Of a stretch of DNA of 64,000 nucleotides, positions 7,352 through 19,901 are shown piece by piece. A program made the translations under genes and the position numbers. The notes under the pieces were generated by a model, which had not been told where the DNA came from, searched no databases, and worked only from the letters and a program-made list of their open reading frames with translations. Source of the DNA: a virus; the IMG/VR virus record IMGVR_UViG_3300042691_039521, positions 1 to 64,000 of that record, one strand, 5' to 3'. Position 1 is the first letter of the stretch; the number at the start of each line of letters is the position of its first letter.

Positions 7352-8617
7352 TTGCTCTATGTATTGGATACTTCAGTTATTCTTGCCGACCCGAAATGCT
7401 TAGAAAGGTTGTCTAACAAAAATATTATTATTCCACTTATAGTTTTAACAGAGTTGGAGGCTAAAAGAAATCATCCAGATCTTGGTTTTGCTGCTCGGTC
7501 TGCTTTAAGAAAACTTGAAGAATATAGAAAAATTAGAAACTTAACTGAAGAAATCCAAACAGAAAATGGTGGAACTTTACGAATTGAAGTTAATCATATT
7601 GATGAGTCTGGTTTACCGAAAGCCTTGCAGGTTCCAGAAAATGATAATAGGATTTTAGCAGTTGCATCTAATCTTTCAAAGAAATATGATGTTACCCTTT
7701 TAACAAAAGATTTACCTTTAAGATTAAAGGCTTCTATTGCCGGCCTTGAGGCTTCTGATTACAGAACAGATAACATTGATGTTGACTGGAGTGGTCTAGT
7801 TGAGGTTAGTGTATCAGAATATTTAATAGATGATTTGTATGAACATGGTTCTGTTTTCGTACATGATCTTGTTAAATATCCGGTGAATACAGGTATAATT
7901 TTGAAGTCTAGTAATTCTTCTAGTTCAGCTTTAGCGAGGCTAACTAAAAAGGGTGACGTTAAATTAGTTAGAGATACTCATTTATTTGATGTGAGAGGTC
8001 GAAGTGCTGAACAAAGAATCGCTTTGGACATTCTATCTGATGATAGCGTCGGAATTGTTTCTCTTGCCGGAAAAGCTGGTACAGGAAAATCACTTCTCGC
8101 TATCGCCGCTGGACTTGAATCAGTGGTTGAGAAAAGGTCTAAAAATAAAGTTACAGTGTTTCGACCACTTTATGCAGTCGGGGGACAAGATATCGGTTTT
8201 CTCCCAGGAACTGCTGAGGAAAAAATGGAACCATGGACCGCTGCAGTATTCGACGCTCTTGAAGCCTTCTGCGGACCAGAAGTTATCGAACAAGTAATTG
8301 AGGAAGAATTATTAGAAGTTTTACCTTTGACTTATATACGAGGAAGAACATTAAATAACAGTTTCATCATCATTGACGAAGCACAAAATTTATCAGAGAT
8401 GGTTCTTTTGACAGCATTAAGTAGAACAGGAAATAATGCAAAAGTAGTTATGACCCATGATGTTGGGCAAAGAGATAATCTCAGGGTGGGGAAATATGAT
8501 GGGATTTCGGCGGTTGTAAATAAGTTATCAGGAAATGAATTATTCGCACATATTACATTGAGAAAGAGCGAAAGATCGCCTATTGCCGAATTAGTTTCCA
8601 GCGTATTGGAAGGATAG
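7352..8617 (+). CDS. phoH: PhoH2-type protein (PIN domain + PhoH ATPase)
   Basis: YVLDTSV PIN start, NDNRIL, GKAGTGKS Walker A, YIRGRTL, IIDEAQN, SERSPIA. Confidence 0.92.
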   Translation: MLYVLDTSVILADPKCLERLSNKNIIIPLIVLTELEAKRNHPDLGFAARSALRKLEEYRKIRNLTEEIQTENGGTLRIEVNHIDESGLPKALQVPENDNRILAVASNLSKKYDVTLLTKDLPLRLKASIAGLEASDYRTDNIDVDWSGLVEVSVSEYLIDDLYEHGSVFVHDLVKYPVNTGIILKSSNSSSSALARLTKKGDVKLVRDTHLFDVRGRSAEQRIALDILSDDSVGIVSLAGKAGTGKSLLAIAAGLESVVEKRSKNKVTVFRPLYAVGGQDIGFLPGTAEEKMEPWTAAVFDALEAFCGPEVIEQVIEEELLEVLPLTYIRGRTLNNSFIIIDEAQNLSEMVLLTALSRTGNNAKVVMTHDVGQRDNLRVGKYDGISAVVNKLSGNELFAHITLRKSERSPIAELVSSVLEG

Positions 8618-15073: not shown

Positions 15074-16234
15074 TCATGCATACATCCTTTTAAGTTTTTC
15101 TATAGAAATAAACTGTGGGTTTTCGCACGATCCGTTGTCTATATCATGTAGTACGATGATTCCACGCCAATATCCTGTACCCTGTGGACCCATGTAATGT
15201 TCTTGATGTTCATAGAATGAACCTGCTGCTATGCCAATTTGTTGTTTTTCTTGGATGTAGCGTGCAGCAAATTTTAGTCCTTGTTGATGACCCATCACGA
15301 AGGATCTTCCTATTGTTTTGAGTCTACCTTCTATTTCTCCACCGTATGGCTTTGATGTTGTTGGGTTATAGAAATAATGGGAGTAGGCTATTCCATCTAA
15401 ATCAACGATGTCAAGAAAATTGTGACGCTGCCAATCCATCGTATCACAATGTTCTGTGGTAAGTAAGCCATCTAACTGAATATCGTTTTCTACTGCTTTG
15501 TTGATTCTGTTTTCGTGGTTGCCGAACAGAAAGTGTTTGTCAAACTTTTTGTCGACTAGTTCACAATTGAGAGCTTTGAATCCTTCGTTGCCAGAGTTGA
15601 TGTCTGCAAGATATCTTCTTCCCTCCATATATCCCTTTCCTCTGTCATAGGAGGATAGGGAACCCATGTTCCAGTGGTCGCCTAGGTGAATTAGTCTCAC
15701 TACGTCATTGTCAACATGATCATTGATATAGGCGGAGGCCCACCATAGATGATCTATGGGCCTTCCTGGCTCTACCTGCGTGTCGGGAATAATGACATGG
15801 GTGACATTACCAGAAGATGATTTACTCTTCTTAGACGGCTTTCTAGGAGCCTTAGGAATGGATTGAAGTATTTCAACCTGTTCATCTGGTAACTTTGGTG
15901 TTACAGAAATAGAATAACCTGTTTTACTCAAGCTTATTCTTGTTATAATACCAAGATCCTCTGCTTCTTGAAGTTTAATATCTAAATCTGTTAAATCTAG
16001 ATCGCCCTCTTTTTTTTCTGTCCAGTTCCTTTGGCCGTACTTTCCCAAAGCTTTATAGGAGACTGTTGGCAGGTTATGTTCCTCAAGATATGTAATAATC
16101 TTCTTGGCTCTCATTCCCTGGTTTCTCCACAGATCTTCCATCAGGTCTTTATTTGGATGATCTGCTACTCCTGTTATTTTAGGCAAAATCTTTCCTTTCG
16201 TCGCAGCGACTGTCGTTAGAATAGATAACGACAA
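15074..16234 (-). CDS. calcineurin-like metallophosphoesterase with N-terminal extension
   Basis: IPDTQ, HLGDHW, GNHE, YSHY, MGHQQ motifs. Confidence 0.85.
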   Translation of the reverse strand: MSLSILTTVAATKGKILPKITGVADHPNKDLMEDLWRNQGMRAKKIITYLEEHNLPTVSYKALGKYGQRNWTEKKEGDLDLTDLDIKLQEAEDLGIITRISLSKTGYSISVTPKLPDEQVEILQSIPKAPRKPSKKSKSSSGNVTHVIIPDTQVEPGRPIDHLWWASAYINDHVDNDVVRLIHLGDHWNMGSLSSYDRGKGYMEGRRYLADINSGNEGFKALNCELVDKKFDKHFLFGNHENRINKAVENDIQLDGLLTTEHCDTMDWQRHNFLDIVDLDGIAYSHYFYNPTTSKPYGGEIEGRLKTIGRSFVMGHQQGLKFAARYIQEKQQIGIAAGSFYEHQEHYMGPQGTGYWRGIIVLHDIDNGSCENPQFISIEKLKRMYA

Positions 16235-16240
16235 GAAGAT

Positions 16241-16270
16241 ATTATATCACTTATCTTATTTTTCTGTCAA
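16241..16270 (-). promoter_or_regulatory. sigma70-type promoter, probably leaderless transcript of the metallophosphoesterase
   Basis: Minus TTGACA-18-TATAAT; TTG start codon at 16234 lies 6-7 nt downstream of the -10. Confidence 0.8.
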
Positions 16271-16272
16271 AC

Positions 16273-16301
16273 TTGACAGGAAGTAAATAGTGTTATATAC
16301 T
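16273..16301 (+). promoter_or_regulatory. sigma70-type promoter driving the structured non-coding region
   Basis: TTGACA-17-TATACT; back-to-back with the minus promoter (CTGTCAA-AC-TTGACAG inverted repeat). Confidence 0.8.
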
Positions 16302-16307
16302 TGAAAA

Positions 16308-16635
16308 CGGAAATAAGTTTAAGCTAATTTACGAGAGCAGAGTGTCGTACCTCTGTCGGGCATCACGACGTTTGTGAGGCACATTCATGTGTAGGGCTAG
16401 CTTCGTCCTTAAGCACCAGTAAGCACCCAGATATAGAATCCGGCTTGTAACGGCAGACCTGGAAAGCATCTTGAACACGGATTCTATGATACCGTGATCG
16501 CTCCAACGATTCGATGTTCCGTCCTGACGCTGTTCCGGCGTATTTGGTTAGGCTCCCTTCAGGTGATGGCTCTAAAAAGAATGACCAAATCTCTCTTATG
16601 AGAATGCTTTTTTTCTCATGAGGGGGATTTAATTA
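16308..16635 (+). ncRNA. candidate structured non-coding RNA (~330 nt), family not recognised
   Basis: No ORF >=60 aa; own promoter; at least 9 stems incl. ATAGAATCCG/CGGATTCTAT (10 bp), ATTTGGTTA/TGACCAAAT, and an 18 bp terminal hairpin with 3 G-U pairs. Confidence 0.6.
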
Positions 16636-16660
16636 TTCACCGCTTAGGTTCCAGATAAAA

Positions 16661-16689
16661 AGAATAAGTCAGTATGTTTGTGCTGTCAA
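16661..16689 (-). promoter_or_regulatory. sigma70-type promoter pointing antisense into the structured region
   Basis: Minus TTGACA-17-TATTCT. Confidence 0.55.
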
Positions 16690-16705
16690 TTCAACGGTTT
16701 GCGGT

Positions 16706-16734
16706 TTGACTGAGTGCGAATTTTGTGCTATAAT
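16706..16734 (+). promoter_or_regulatory. sigma70-type promoter of the phage sigma factor
   Basis: TTGACT-17-TATAAT with TGn extended -10. Confidence 0.85.
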
Positions 16735-16766
16735 ATTGTGTAGTTTATTTGTTGAAAGGAGTATTC

Positions 16767-17549
16767 TTGATCTTAAAAAATAAGAAGAAATACTCTGAGC
16801 AGGAAAAAGAAATTCTTTGGAATAGATATAGGGAAGATAGAAATAATGTAAAAGTTTTTAATGAACTTTTGGAAGCGTATCTTCCTTTGTTGGAAGTTAT
16901 TGCTTCCAAATCCAAGTCGAATCTTCCTTCTCAGATCGAAATTGGTGATTTGTTGAATGATGGGTTTTTTGGTTTAGTTGACGCTATTGAGCGTTTTGAT
17001 GAAACTAAGGGCTGGAAATTTGAGACGTATGCTTCTAACCGTATTCGTGGAGAAATCAACGATCGTCTTCGTGATTATGATTGGGTTTCTCGTTATTCTC
17101 GTTTGAAGTTTAAGCAGGTTTCTCAAACGGAAACTTTTTTGGTGGAAGAGTTGCAGCGCCAACCGACTTTACAGGATATTGCTGACCGTTTGGGTTGGGA
17201 TGTATCTGAAGTGAGTAAGGTTCAGGCAGCTTTTAATAATTCTTATTCTATCAATATTGATGAGTATATTTCAGATTCAACTCATGAATCATTTTCTTTG
17301 AGCGAGATGATTCCTGATAGTTCTGCCGGTCAGGCTGGTTTTGATCTGGATGTTGATGATTTAACAAAAATTATTGAAAGAAAGATGTTTTCTCTTGCTG
17401 AACATGAATCTATTGTTGTTTTTCTTTATATTTATGAGAATATGACGTTTGAGGAAATTGCTGAGGCCACTGATTCTAAAGCATCGAAGGTTATGAAGAT
17501 TTTCAATGAAGCTATTTCTAGTTTGAGAGAAAATCTTGGGGTTTATTGA
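16767..17549 (+). CDS. RNA polymerase sigma factor, FliA/WhiG (sigma28) family
   Basis: DLLNDGFFGLVDAIERFD..KG.KFETYA..RIRGEIND.LR..DWV.R region 2; region 3 L.RQPT..DIA..LG; region 4 HTH; start at TTG 16767 after AAGGAG. Confidence 0.9.
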   Translation: MILKNKKKYSEQEKEILWNRYREDRNNVKVFNELLEAYLPLLEVIASKSKSNLPSQIEIGDLLNDGFFGLVDAIERFDETKGWKFETYASNRIRGEINDRLRDYDWVSRYSRLKFKQVSQTETFLVEELQRQPTLQDIADRLGWDVSEVSKVQAAFNNSYSINIDEYISDSTHESFSLSEMIPDSSAGQAGFDLDVDDLTKIIERKMFSLAEHESIVVFLYIYENMTFEEIAEATDSKASKVMKIFNEAISSLRENLGVY

Positions 17550-17596: not shown

Positions 17597-19447
17597 TTGA
17601 GTATTATCAAAAAAGGTGCTGATCCGGATTATATCAATGATTTTTCGATGGCCTTATTGGATGGATTTTATTTATTAGAAGGAGAAACTTTTGATGACGC
17701 TATAGCTCGGGCGGCTGAGGCGTTTTGTTTCGGAGATTATCAACTTGCTCAAAGAATTTATGAAGCGGCTTGGAACGGTTGGTTCATGTTCGCTAGCCCT
17801 ATTCTAAGTAACGCCCCTAAGGGTTCTTGGTCGATGGATATGACAGAGGCTTGGAAAGAAGGCGGCTTATTGACTAATGGTTTCGTTGGTGAGCACACCA
17901 AAGCTATGCCTATTAGTTGTTTCAGCATGTATATTCCTGACACTATTGATGGTCAGATGGATGCAAATAAGGAACTTGCCGCCCTTTCTGTTGCCGGTGG
18001 CGGTGTAGGTTTGCACAACGGTATTCGTGCTACATCGAATAAGGCACCGGGACCAATTCCATACATGAAAACTATGGATGGTTTGATTGGGTACTATCAG
18101 CAGTCAAAGAATCGCCGTGGTGCTTGTGCTTATTATATGGATGTTTCTCATCCTGATATCATTGAACATATTCGTTTTCGCGTGCCATCTGGTGGGGATT
18201 CTGCTCGTAAGTCAGATAATCGCACACAGTTTCACTCTGCTGTGAACATCACAGAAGATTTCATTCAAGCTGTTTTGGCTGATGAAGATTTTGATCTTGT
18301 ATGTCCTCACACCAAAGAGGTTCGTGAAACCGTTCCTGCTCGTATGATTTGGGAAGAGATTCTTGAAACCCGTGCGTTAACAGGTGAGCCATATCTTTTC
18401 AAGATTGATACAACGAACAAAGCTCTTCCTAAAGCCCAGAAAAAACTTGGCTTAAAAGTTAATGGATCAAATATTTGCAGTGAGATTACTCTTCCCACTA
18501 GCGATGAAAGAACTTTTGTTTGTTGCCTATCTTCCTTGAACCTAGAAAAGTATGATGAGTGGGCTGATACAACCCTAGTTTCTGATTTGATCAGATATCT
18601 AGATAATGTTATTCAATATTTTATCGAACAAGCTCCGGACGCTCTATCTAAGGCCGTGTATTCTGCTGGTCGTGAACGTGCTCTCGGTTTGGGTACGATG
18701 GGCTGGCACTACTATCTTCAATCAAAGGGTATTCCTTTTGAGGGCGGCGGTTTCGGTTCCGCTATTCAGGAAACACACATGATTTTCAAGAAGATCAAAC
18801 AACAAGCCATAGCTGAATCAGAAAAGCTTGCTGTGGAACGGGGAGAAGCTCCCGATATGATCGGTACTGGTCGGCGTAACAGTCACCTTTTAGCTATAGC
18901 CCCAAATGCCAACAATTCTGTTATCGTTGGCACGTCGGCCAGTATCGAACCTGTTTCCGGTAACACGTATGCTCACTCTACTAGAGCGGGAACTTTTGTT
19001 GTGAAGAATCCTTACCTTCAGAGAATCTTTGAGTTTGCTGCTTGGGTCAAATTCTTAGAAGAAGATGAACGAGAGGCTTGGATAGAAGAACAATGGCGTG
19101 ATGTTATAGCTCATGATGGCTCAGTTCAGCATCTTGATTTCTTAACCATTGAGGAAAAAGAAGTATTCAAAACAGCTTTCGAGATTGATCAACATTGGTT
19201 GATCGAACAGGCTGACGCACGCCAGCAGTATGTGTGTCAGTCACAGAGTCTCAACATCTTCTTCCCAGCGGGTGTTGATAGAACATACTTCAACTCTGTT
19301 CATCTAAAAGCTATGACAGCAGAGTATGTTAAAGGTTTATACTATTCAAGAATGAAGAGAGGCGTTAATGCAGACGTTGTTAAAGAGATTGAAAGAAAAG
19401 TTATCGAAGACTGGGCCGGAGAAGACTGCGTGAGTTGCCATGGATAG
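17597..19447 (+). CDS. nrdA: class I ribonucleotide reductase alpha subunit
   Basis: ASPILSN, PISCF, SNICSEI, CCLSSLNL, AIAPNAN..., QSQSLN, LYY, C-terminal CVSC. Confidence 0.95.
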   Translation: MSIIKKGADPDYINDFSMALLDGFYLLEGETFDDAIARAAEAFCFGDYQLAQRIYEAAWNGWFMFASPILSNAPKGSWSMDMTEAWKEGGLLTNGFVGEHTKAMPISCFSMYIPDTIDGQMDANKELAALSVAGGGVGLHNGIRATSNKAPGPIPYMKTMDGLIGYYQQSKNRRGACAYYMDVSHPDIIEHIRFRVPSGGDSARKSDNRTQFHSAVNITEDFIQAVLADEDFDLVCPHTKEVRETVPARMIWEEILETRALTGEPYLFKIDTTNKALPKAQKKLGLKVNGSNICSEITLPTSDERTFVCCLSSLNLEKYDEWADTTLVSDLIRYLDNVIQYFIEQAPDALSKAVYSAGRERALGLGTMGWHYYLQSKGIPFEGGGFGSAIQETHMIFKKIKQQAIAESEKLAVERGEAPDMIGTGRRNSHLLAIAPNANNSVIVGTSASIEPVSGNTYAHSTRAGTFVVKNPYLQRIFEFAAWVKFLEEDEREAWIEEQWRDVIAHDGSVQHLDFLTIEEKEVFKTAFEIDQHWLIEQADARQQYVCQSQSLNIFFPAGVDRTYFNSVHLKAMTAEYVKGLYYSRMKRGVNADVVKEIERKVIEDWAGEDCVSCHG

Positions 19448-19901
19448 GTTAGAGTTGTTTGAAGCTAAAATATCCAAAGGACCTGATTGTTGGATTTGGG
19501 ATGGAGCAAGGTCTGGTAGGTACGGATCATTTCATTTCCCAGAGTATCCATATCCTCGTAAAATGGTTTCAGCACATAAGGCTAGTCTATATCTGTATGA
19601 AGGTATAGCAACCTCTCCAGAACAGAATGTTATGCATTCTTGTGATAATGGATTTTGTGTTAATCCAGATCATTTATCAGTTGGTACAAGATCTGATAAT
19701 ATGAAAGATATGGTTTCTAAGGGTAGACATGTTATTCCAACTCAAAAACTAGATCAGGCAGACGTAATATGCGCCAGACAAATGCGTAGAAGCGGAGTTC
19801 AAGTGAAAGAAATTGCAGAGGTTTTTAATATATCACCATCGCAAATGACTAGATTAACATCTGGGGTTTTGCCTAAATGGACAAGGAATGCATGGGTATG
19901 A
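19440..19901 (+). mobile_element. free-standing HNH homing endonuclease (HNH_3 + C-terminal HTH)
   Basis: CWIWDG, YG, AHK, VMHSCDNGFCVNPDHL..GT..DNM.DM..KGR; inserted between nrdA and nrdB. Confidence 0.88.

Follow-up and report, generated by a model that had tools for sequence, protein, structure and literature searches.

A structured RNA with its own promoter upstream of a phage sigma factor gene: a candidate new family of phage non-coding RNA

What is encoded by 532 nt without a gene, lying directly upstream of the sigma factor gene of an uncultivated phage, is the question raised by this locus. The window, i.e., the whole stretch of 64,000 nt that was analysed, covers the initial 64 kb of a phage record of 80.5 kb in IMG/VR (IMGVR_UViG_3300042691_039521) with an estimated completeness of 70%, and has a GC content of approximately 40%. 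Genes are mostly oriented leftward to the left of 16.2 kb, and all lie on the + strand from 16.7 kb to at least 64 kb. Positions 16235-16766 form the biggest gene-free gap of the window, as the initial annotation had claimed; the sole other gap of like size (1189-1711) is taken up by successive small, overlapping + strand ORFs. The gap is bordered by a gene for a metallophosphoesterase-like protein and by a FliA/WhiG-type sigma factor gene (Table 1), whose start was set at TTG 16767, behind AAAGGAG, because the sigma orthologues are 260 aa long. Downstream of the sigma gene follow, in order, the large subunit of ribonucleotide reductase, an HNH endonuclease, and the small subunit (nrdA-nrdB), with HNH genes near the RNA locus at 19440-19901. 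No cultured relative was found by tblastn of the sigma protein, the best identity being 32%.

Syntenic loci were fetched via the sigma protein and its relatives, and then searched with the gap sequence using nhmmer, which located it in L005 (E 2.5e-41) and L003 (E 2e-21), in each directly before the sigma orthologue. A further copy, L173, was obtained by scanning GTDB genomes with a 21-base pattern, which matched only this contig (profile nhmmer E 2e-104); it is a 149-kb contig binned with a Coxiellaceae MAG and shares approximately 88% DNA identity with L003 over the loci compared. The family as recovered here consists of four copies, representing three divergent lineages plus one near-duplicate, with sigma proteins 59-68% identical, and the element is single-copy in each record. 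All four records present the same order of back-to-back early promoters, RNA, sigma promoter, FliA-like sigma gene, and ribonucleotide reductase.

Wider searches were carried out for additional copies. The element had no match by distant blastn in 50,697 GenBank phage records, as an exact 30-mer in IMG/VR, or through the 21-base pattern in a metagenome collection. Four conserved-block patterns run against IMG/VR returned just the same two contigs and chance matches, the latter weeded out by the nhmmer profile, and a sigma-based search of metagenome loci retrieved mostly bacterial FliA and no further copy. Divergent copies upstream of other sigma orthologues were detected neither by nhmmer --max nor by a covariance model (R1), and one candidate (L027) was rejected as a chance match in GC-rich coding DNA. 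The comparison left out the contigs encoding the closest sigma orthologues (P0002-P0006, 81-85% identity), which are probably the best source of further copies.

The leftward, RNA and sigma promoters are all conserved in L005 and L003, with 11-12 of 12 matches. Equivalents of the leftward early promoter lie at 972->944 in L005 and 2479->2451 in L003 (11-12/12), those of the RNA promoter read TTGACA-17-TATAGT (L005, 974-1002) and TTGACA-17-TATACT (L003, 2481-2509), and those of the sigma promoter match at 12/12 positions (L005, 1406-1434; L003, 2937-2965). The RNA's own promoter (TTGACA-17-TATAnT) is kept in the three lineages, with the invariant ACGAG 23-29 nt past the -10 element in all of them. 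The initial annotation had described the gap as enclosed by four promoters. All four are sigma-70-type sites located where it had placed them, and the separate promoter that it attributed to the sigma gene is conserved in all lineages; the inner leftward site (16689->16661), however, has no counterpart in L005 or L003, so the possible antisense regulator deduced from it finds no support. This site overlaps the 3' end of the RNA, not its 5' part. The count of promoter sites is unremarkable (5 in 1.2 kb versus 3.1 expected); what counts is the quality and conservation of the three sites, not their number. A terminator scan of the window, L005 and L003 yielded no clean intrinsic terminator 3' of the RNA in any lineage, and read-through from the RNA into the sigma gene is therefore possible.

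Table 1. Coordinates of genes, promoters and RNA elements at the locus (positions in the window).
Feature	Position	Strand	Evidence and remarks
Metallophosphoesterase-like protein gene	15074-16234	-	PHROG 221; left border of the gap
Leftward early promoter, TTGACA-18-TATAAT, TG-extended	16241..16270 (16270->16241)	-	12/12; metallophosphoesterase operon
RNA promoter, TTGACA-17-TATACT	16273..16301	+	11/12; paired back to back with the leftward site; start predicted at ~16308
Structured RNA, conserved extent	16308..16668	+	nhmmer; alignments A2, A3
P1, candidate closing helix	16314..16318 with 16642-16646	+	RNAalifold and per-sequence check; weak, 4-5 A/U-rich pairs
Invariant ACGAG, unpaired in the model	16331..16335	+	Alignments
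P2 hairpin, GCAGAG/CTCTGT	16337..16356	+	6 bp in all lineages; both sides changed in 4/6 pairs
P3 hairpin, TCACGA/TTGTGA	16363..16377	+	Other sequence in L005 and L003; one C-A mismatch each
P4 hairpin, GCACA/TGTGT	16379..16392	+	Compensated pairs 2/5
P5 hairpin, AGGGC/GTCCT, invariant loop TAGCTTC (UAGCUUC)	16393..16409	+	C-G -> G-C in L003 and L173
Near-invariant single-stranded junction TAAGCACCAGTAAGCACCCAGA (RNA form UAAGCACCAGUAAGCACCCAGA)	16410..16431	+	Alignment
P6, 11-bp helix around invariant TGTAA-GGCAGACCTGG core (UGUAA-GGCAGACCUGG)	16432..16488 (16432-42/16478-88)	+	Both-side changes in 7/11 pairs
P7, optional hairpin GATCG/CGATT	16496..16511	+	GAGACA/TGTCTC in L005 instead; absent in L003 and L173
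Invariant GTTCCGTCCTG (GUUCCGUCCUG), then P8 hairpin ACGCTG/CGGCGT	16517..16541 (P8 16527-41)	+	P8 compensated pairs 2/5
Helix ATTTGGTTA/TGACCAAAT around invariant TAGGCTCC-TTCAG	16542..16590 (16542-50/16582-90)	+	Two compensatory pairs
P10, long hairpin	16579..16638	+	Inverted repeat I1; weakly terminator-like on both strands
Conserved tail: ACCG, P1 3' strand GCTTA, second copy of TAAAAAGAAT	16639..16668	+	Direct repeat D1
Leftward antisense promoter-like site, TTGACA-17-TATTCT	16661..16689 (16689->16661)	-	10/12; this phage only
Sigma gene promoter, TTGACT-17-TGcTATAAT, TG-extended	16706..16734	+	11/12
FliA/WhiG-type sigma factor gene, 260 aa, TTG start behind AAAGGAG	16767..17549	+	Pfam Sigma70 r2/r3/r4; 260-aa orthologues

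Across the three lineages, long invariant blocks alternate with segments of differing sequence that still pair (Table 1). An example of such pairing is provided by P6 (ATAGAATCCG, ATAAGGTTTT, ATAATCAAC), with seven compensated pairs. Replacement or loss of P7 and the free tip length of the last hairpin are typical of real RNAs. The near-invariant junction at 16410-16431 has no complement elsewhere in the window, so that an antisense target there was rejected, and could form pseudoknots within the RNA, pairing AAGC with GCTT of the P5 loop, and CCAG with CTGG at 16459-62. The stems listed by the initial annotation are all present at their coordinates and are kept in the homologues mostly by compensatory change, except for two GTAA/GGAA arms inside P6, which lie in invariant sequence and have no comparative support.

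Folding of the single sequence is weak evidence for such a structure, being just marginally above shuffles: the z-score of the + strand was -2.2 for 341 nt and -1.9 for 361 nt, against -0.3 for the - strand. The minimum free energy fold of the single sequence misses most of the conserved helices and is therefore unfit as a structure model; with the conserved helices enforced, the energy is -97.9 kcal/mol, the unconstrained optimum being -105. The evidence comes instead from comparison of the syntenic regions, where compensatory changes were found across the three lineages. RNAalifold run on three sequences returned 72 pairs, 24 of which exhibit a compensatory double change. In alignment A4, covering helices P5, P6 and P8, 97.6% of cells pair, and both sides changed in 10 of 21 pairs; none of 500 shuffles did as well, and pairing fell to 39-56% when the partner was shifted by 1-3 columns. 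The remaining helices were checked per sequence, anchored on the invariant blocks. Overall, nine helices in three lineages gave 135 Watson-Crick, 26 G-U, 4 A-C and 3 other cells (96% pairing), with changes on both sides in 21 of 56 pairs. These covariation statistics rest on few sequences, namely four copies from three independent lineages. As the initial annotation had argued from G-U pairs in the window, selection acts on the + strand RNA and not on DNA palindromes, because G-U cells exceed A-C cells 26:4; the strand difference in folding z-scores also favours the + strand.

The level of conservation is similar to that of the neighbouring gene, nucleotide identity being 62-69% for the RNA and 65-67% for the sigma gene; for the close pair L003/L173 the RNA is the more conserved of the two, at 98.6% against 94.5% for the sigma gene. 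A small-protein gene was rejected as an explanation, since no ORF is conserved in position or frame, the longest ORFs differing in place and strand among the homologues, 1-nt indels occur in the conserved part, and ATG 16514 is ACG in L005. The optional hairpin likewise varies in length (0, 19 or 23 nt). In our judgement it is nearly certain that the gap encodes a structured + strand RNA that is under selection and has a promoter of its own.

The 3' part of the RNA admits more than one pairing. The helix at 16542-90, correctly recognised in the initial annotation, carries its two compensatory pairs in a core that changes from GGTTA/TGACC to GACTA/TAGTT in L003 and GACT/AGTC in L005. The long hairpin at 16579-16638 competes with it through its base, and a competing helix was favoured by RNAalifold; the more stable form is the long hairpin in the window and the 16542-90 helix in L005 and L003. 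The tip of P10 is variable in length, and its 3' strand GGGGGATTTAAYTATTC (GGGGGAUUUAAYUAUUC) is invariant. This strand can also pair with the second copy, UAAAAAGAAU, at 16656-65 in the conserved tail, through GAATAA/TTATTC (16633-38) with one compensated pair. The 3' pairings are mutually exclusive (x:y versus y:z, and a:b versus b:c), with compensated pairing in each, and the terminator-like tip hairpin persists in either alternative fold. The tip hairpin may be a weak terminator, as a moderately U-rich invariant tract comes after it; the long hairpin followed by the invariant AUUUAAYUAUUC was not flagged by the terminator scan, and conservation runs approximately 30 nt beyond it, halting abruptly at ~16668. 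Candidate 3' ends of the RNA are ~16640, if the long hairpin terminates transcription, and at least 16668, if the conserved tail is included.

Comparison with known families returned no relative. No match at the gathering score was obtained with the 4,227 models of Rfam 15 in the whole window and 17 related loci, and relaxing the threshold to E 10 in 16150-16800 gave only four matches of 14-22 bits to unrelated snoRNA, sRNA and lncRNA models. The Rfam 15 models include group I and II introns, RNase P, tmRNA, 6S, SRP, T-box and riboswitches, as well as ROOL, GOLLD, HEARO, OLE, raiA and the phage pRNA. ARAGORN found no tRNA or tmRNA in the window, L002, L003, L005 or L010. The novelty of the RNA with respect to known families and the initial reading of the locus as free of tRNA, tmRNA, riboswitch or intron both agree with these results. 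Literature searches for conserved words of the RNA retrieved just one 11-base string, in unrelated contexts. The stretch AUAGAAUCCGGCUUGU, which may resemble part of the P4 strand of RNase P, is not conserved in L005 or L003, and the likeness was rejected.

Several known RNAs share some of its properties. ROOL and GOLLD, reportedly described as large "ornate" phage and prophage RNAs in a cryo-EM study, are likewise phage-borne and stand-alone, combine many helices with invariant junctions, and were found by conservation rather than phenotype; nevertheless, they are ~600-800 nt long against ~350 nt here, their models did not match at the gathering score or at E 10, and the RNA described here has no tRNA neighbours and no sign of multimer formation. 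The pRNA of phi29 is also a structured phage RNA and is transcribed separately, from a host-type early promoter, but it has ~174 nt, belongs to the phi29-type packaging motor, and its Phage_pRNA model found no match. A 6S-like role would suit the constant place beside a phage sigma gene and early strong expression, as would the example of actinobacterial Ms1, an RNA polymerase-binding RNA like 6S; however, 6S is an extended rod whose large central bubble mimics an open promoter, whereas the consensus here is a multi-branched, multi-helix junction without a match to the 6S model, and a link of this RNA to RNA polymerase is conjecture. Candidate structured RNAs from the same data source, IMG/VR, likewise identified by covariation in phage intergenic regions, were compared by length and are shorter (29-151 nt; PMC10690425). 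With no match among the known RNA families and systems compared, the RNA is, judging by its sequence, a new family.

The RNA is not a fixed part of its locus. The sister phage L002 is 99.5% identical to L003 up to L003 position 2432, and again 96% identical from position 2981; in place of the 548 nt in between (2433-2980), which span both left promoters, the RNA and the promoter of the sigma gene, L002 carries 999 nt of unrelated sequence, including an HNH-motif ORF abutting the sigma start. Since a 99.5%-identical sister phage has different DNA in place of the whole module, the RNA is an exchangeable accessory. Different elements are found at the same position in other phages. A GC-rich, highly conserved element of ~240 nt with a closing helix, without a match in Rfam, is present in L010-L016, while L002, L004, L006-L008 and L017 have in common an element of ~65 nt; it contains two terminator-like hairpins, and one of these shows covariation (CAGG/CCTG to CGGG/CCCG). 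Because other sigma loci carry unrelated conserved elements there, the site between the early and sigma promoters gives the impression of a slot in which early, non-coding transcription units of separate kinds are placed. Derivation of the RNA by insertion between ACGAG and UUCACC of the short L002-type element was considered and dropped, as only 11 bases are shared.

The reading that we rank first, giving it about an even chance, is that of a stand-alone, trans-acting early phage ncRNA of a new family. The near-consensus host-type promoter at 16273-16301, placed a fixed short distance upstream, would allow the host RNA polymerase to make the RNA at the very start of infection. The transcript, predicted to begin at ~16308, can fold into at least nine helices kept by compensatory changes (four short hairpins, the 11-bp helix, the optional hairpin, two more helices and the long terminal hairpin), joined by invariant single-stranded segments, and would end at the weak terminator-like long hairpin (~330 nt) or slightly past it (~360 nt). 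RNA and promoters travel together as one single-copy cassette. The folded RNA would then act in trans, its invariant junctions offering a specific surface for a protein or a small ligand; invariance at so many unpaired positions hints at a specific tertiary fold or a surface for binding. This reading is ranked first on account of that invariance and because the RNA has a promoter to itself, the sigma gene has another, and the module is exchanged like a cassette. It is countered by the small number of copies, the lack of a clean terminator ahead of the sigma promoter, the competing pairings in the 3' third, the weak P1 and the existence of relatives without the element. It retains from the initial annotation a stand-alone, structured + strand RNA with its own promoter and outside any Rfam family, but not the possible antisense regulator. 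The transcription machinery would be the first candidate target, because the RNA is fixed in front of the phage's own sigma gene; a protein of host defence or of RNA processing would come second. Naming RNA polymerase or sigma is a guess made only from the gene neighbourhood.

The RNA could instead be a cis-acting leader, transcripts from the strong early promoter running through it into sigma-nrdA-nrdB and beyond. Such read-through would be controlled by the RNA, whether by attenuation in response to a ligand or protein or by a put-like action that produces terminator-resistant RNA polymerase along the ~47-kb rightward array. We rank this reading second, and consider it rather unlikely, because of the constant position (always directly upstream of sigma, in the same orientation), the absence of a strong terminator, none being conserved between RNA and sigma, and the mutually exclusive 3' pairings, each with a compensated pair. 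The RNA resembles HK022 put and riboswitch or T-box leaders in lying just after an early promoter and before a long co-directional operon, here with every gene from 16.7 kb to at least 64 kb on the + strand, and in its 3' alternative pairings; the put sites of HK022 lie just downstream of its early promoters. At 330-360 nt, however, the RNA far exceeds typical riboswitches and has several times the size of put, none of the riboswitch and T-box models matched it, and a conserved sigma promoter (11/12 or 12/12) stands between the RNA and the first gene in every lineage, which is not the arrangement of such leaders. L002 has a 96%-identical sigma gene without the element. Moreover, as the terminator-like tip hairpin is left undisrupted in both alternative folds, in contrast to riboswitches and attenuators, a classical terminator/antiterminator switch is probably not formed.

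A role in replication, proposed by the initial annotation as a primer RNA, would have the transcript form a persistent hybrid through its G5-6 tract and prime replication in the style of ColE1 RNA II or the T4 ori, under regulation, in this phage, by an antisense RNA. ColE1 RNA II/RNA I offers a parallel in its promoter-driven, folded transcript of several hundred nt, and the window has an inward antisense promoter; the RNA also lies at the divergence point of two gene arms, where the cumulative GC skew turns, and contains an invariant G5-6 run followed by an A/T-rich stretch. The skew turn is uninformative, though, because gene orientation changes at the same point; the antisense promoter lacks conservation, neither iterons nor an AT-rich unwinding element were found in the window, most relatives lack the RNA, and a phage with 99.5%-identical flanks dispenses with the module and has a different one. 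On these grounds the primer proposal finds no support, and an origin transcript is regarded as improbable. Patchy distribution among related phages, the HNH endonuclease ORF in the replacement block of L002 and the HNH genes nearby in the window could point to a mobile-element remnant or passenger, such as a degenerate intron or a homing-endonuclease-linked cargo RNA with no present function for the phage. This is very improbable, given purifying selection as strong as that on the sigma gene, the many compensatory changes over ~35% divergence, the conservation of the RNA's own promoter, the single-copy state of the element, and the lack of matches to group I and II intron models even at E 10.

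More tentatively, the RNA might found a new class of large phage RNAs with intricate folds, acting in trans during host take-over from an exchangeable "RNA cassette" slot, a reading that we regard as doubtful. In that case, it could serve as a decoy or scaffold for RNA polymerase or sigma, or for a host defence protein, or could even be a ribozyme. RNAs of several hundred nt rarely combine many covarying helices with invariant junctions; those whose function has been solved mostly proved to be ribozymes, riboswitch-like sensors, or assemblies made of ribonucleoprotein or of RNA alone. New is used here in the sense that no known RNA family or system matches, and the role of the RNA may yet prove familiar; the new family is solid, though tiny, with three lineages from uncultivated phages, whereas a new mechanism is not proven. 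Its promoter is defined, and its size is small enough for SHAPE, crystallography and cryo-EM. Given its place in the presumably first-transcribed position of a lytic-type phage, beside the phage's own sigma factor, this RNA may report on an RNA-based step in the take-over of the host.

Between two closely related records, L003, which carries a homologue of the large RNA, and L002, which lacks it, the entire intergenic module upstream of the sigma gene has been exchanged (L002 1988-2986 versus L003 2433-2980), while the flanks are 99.5% identical. The RNA cassette of L003 is replaced in L002 by a module that includes an HNH-motif ORF abutting the sigma start (see table). An element of ~65 nt (…ACCCACCG…ATGTCATC-hairpin) is common to six relatives without the large RNA (see table). 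It contains two hairpins that resemble terminators, of which one covaries (CAGG/CCTG to CGGG/CCCG), and it forms the end of an ORF-poor unit of ~440 nt upstream of the sigma promoter.

A sister clade typified by L010, with sigma proteins 35-39% identical, has the slot between the early promoters and the sigma promoter occupied by an element distinct from the large RNA. This GC-rich element of ~240 nt, confined to six IMG/VR contigs, is 75-90% conserved, with 1-nt indels, and is closed by the helix GCGCCCCA / TGGGGTG. Covariation was detected in 2 of 70 pairs, conservation being too high for such a test, and the Rfam search returned no match to the element even at E 10.

Coordinates of features in the window and in related records
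Feature	Record	Positions	Remarks
~65-nt element	L002	2447-2511	also L006, L007, L008, L017
~65-nt element	L004	about 2805-2870	
~240-nt element	L010	2693-2932	also L011, L012, L013, L014, L016
HNH-motif ORF	L002	2684-3004	106 aa
PIN-PhoH fusion gene	window	7352-8617	421 aa; left arm
Ribonucleotide reductase large subunit (nrdA)	window	17597-19447	616 aa
Ribonucleotide reductase large subunit	L003	3830-6661	943 aa
Ribonucleotide reductase large subunit	L005	2288-5224	978 aa
HNH endonuclease gene	window	19440-19901	between nrdA and nrdB

In this phage only, an antisense promoter (-10 at 16666-16661) faces a long hairpin (16579-16638; the region as a whole spans 16579-16689). A T-rich tract lies beyond this hairpin on the minus strand, and the site could thus give rise to a short antisense transcript of ~70-80 nt. 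The mechanical ORF of the sigma gene begins at TTG 16749, and TTG 16767 is the predicted real start because orthologues measure 260 aa and an AAAGGAG box is present.

The greater length of the ribonucleotide reductase large subunit in L003 and L005, compared with that in the window, suggests an intein or other insertion in these relatives. In the left arm of the window, dCMP deaminase and thymidylate synthase are encoded beside the PIN-PhoH fusion gene.

Among cultured phages, identity to the sigma protein does not exceed 32%. Over the compared loci, the 149-kb record L173 (CAZUVD010000006.1), another carrier of the large RNA, is 85-91% identical to L003. Its assignment to a MAG designated uncultured Coxiellaceae is either a binning artefact or a clue to the host.
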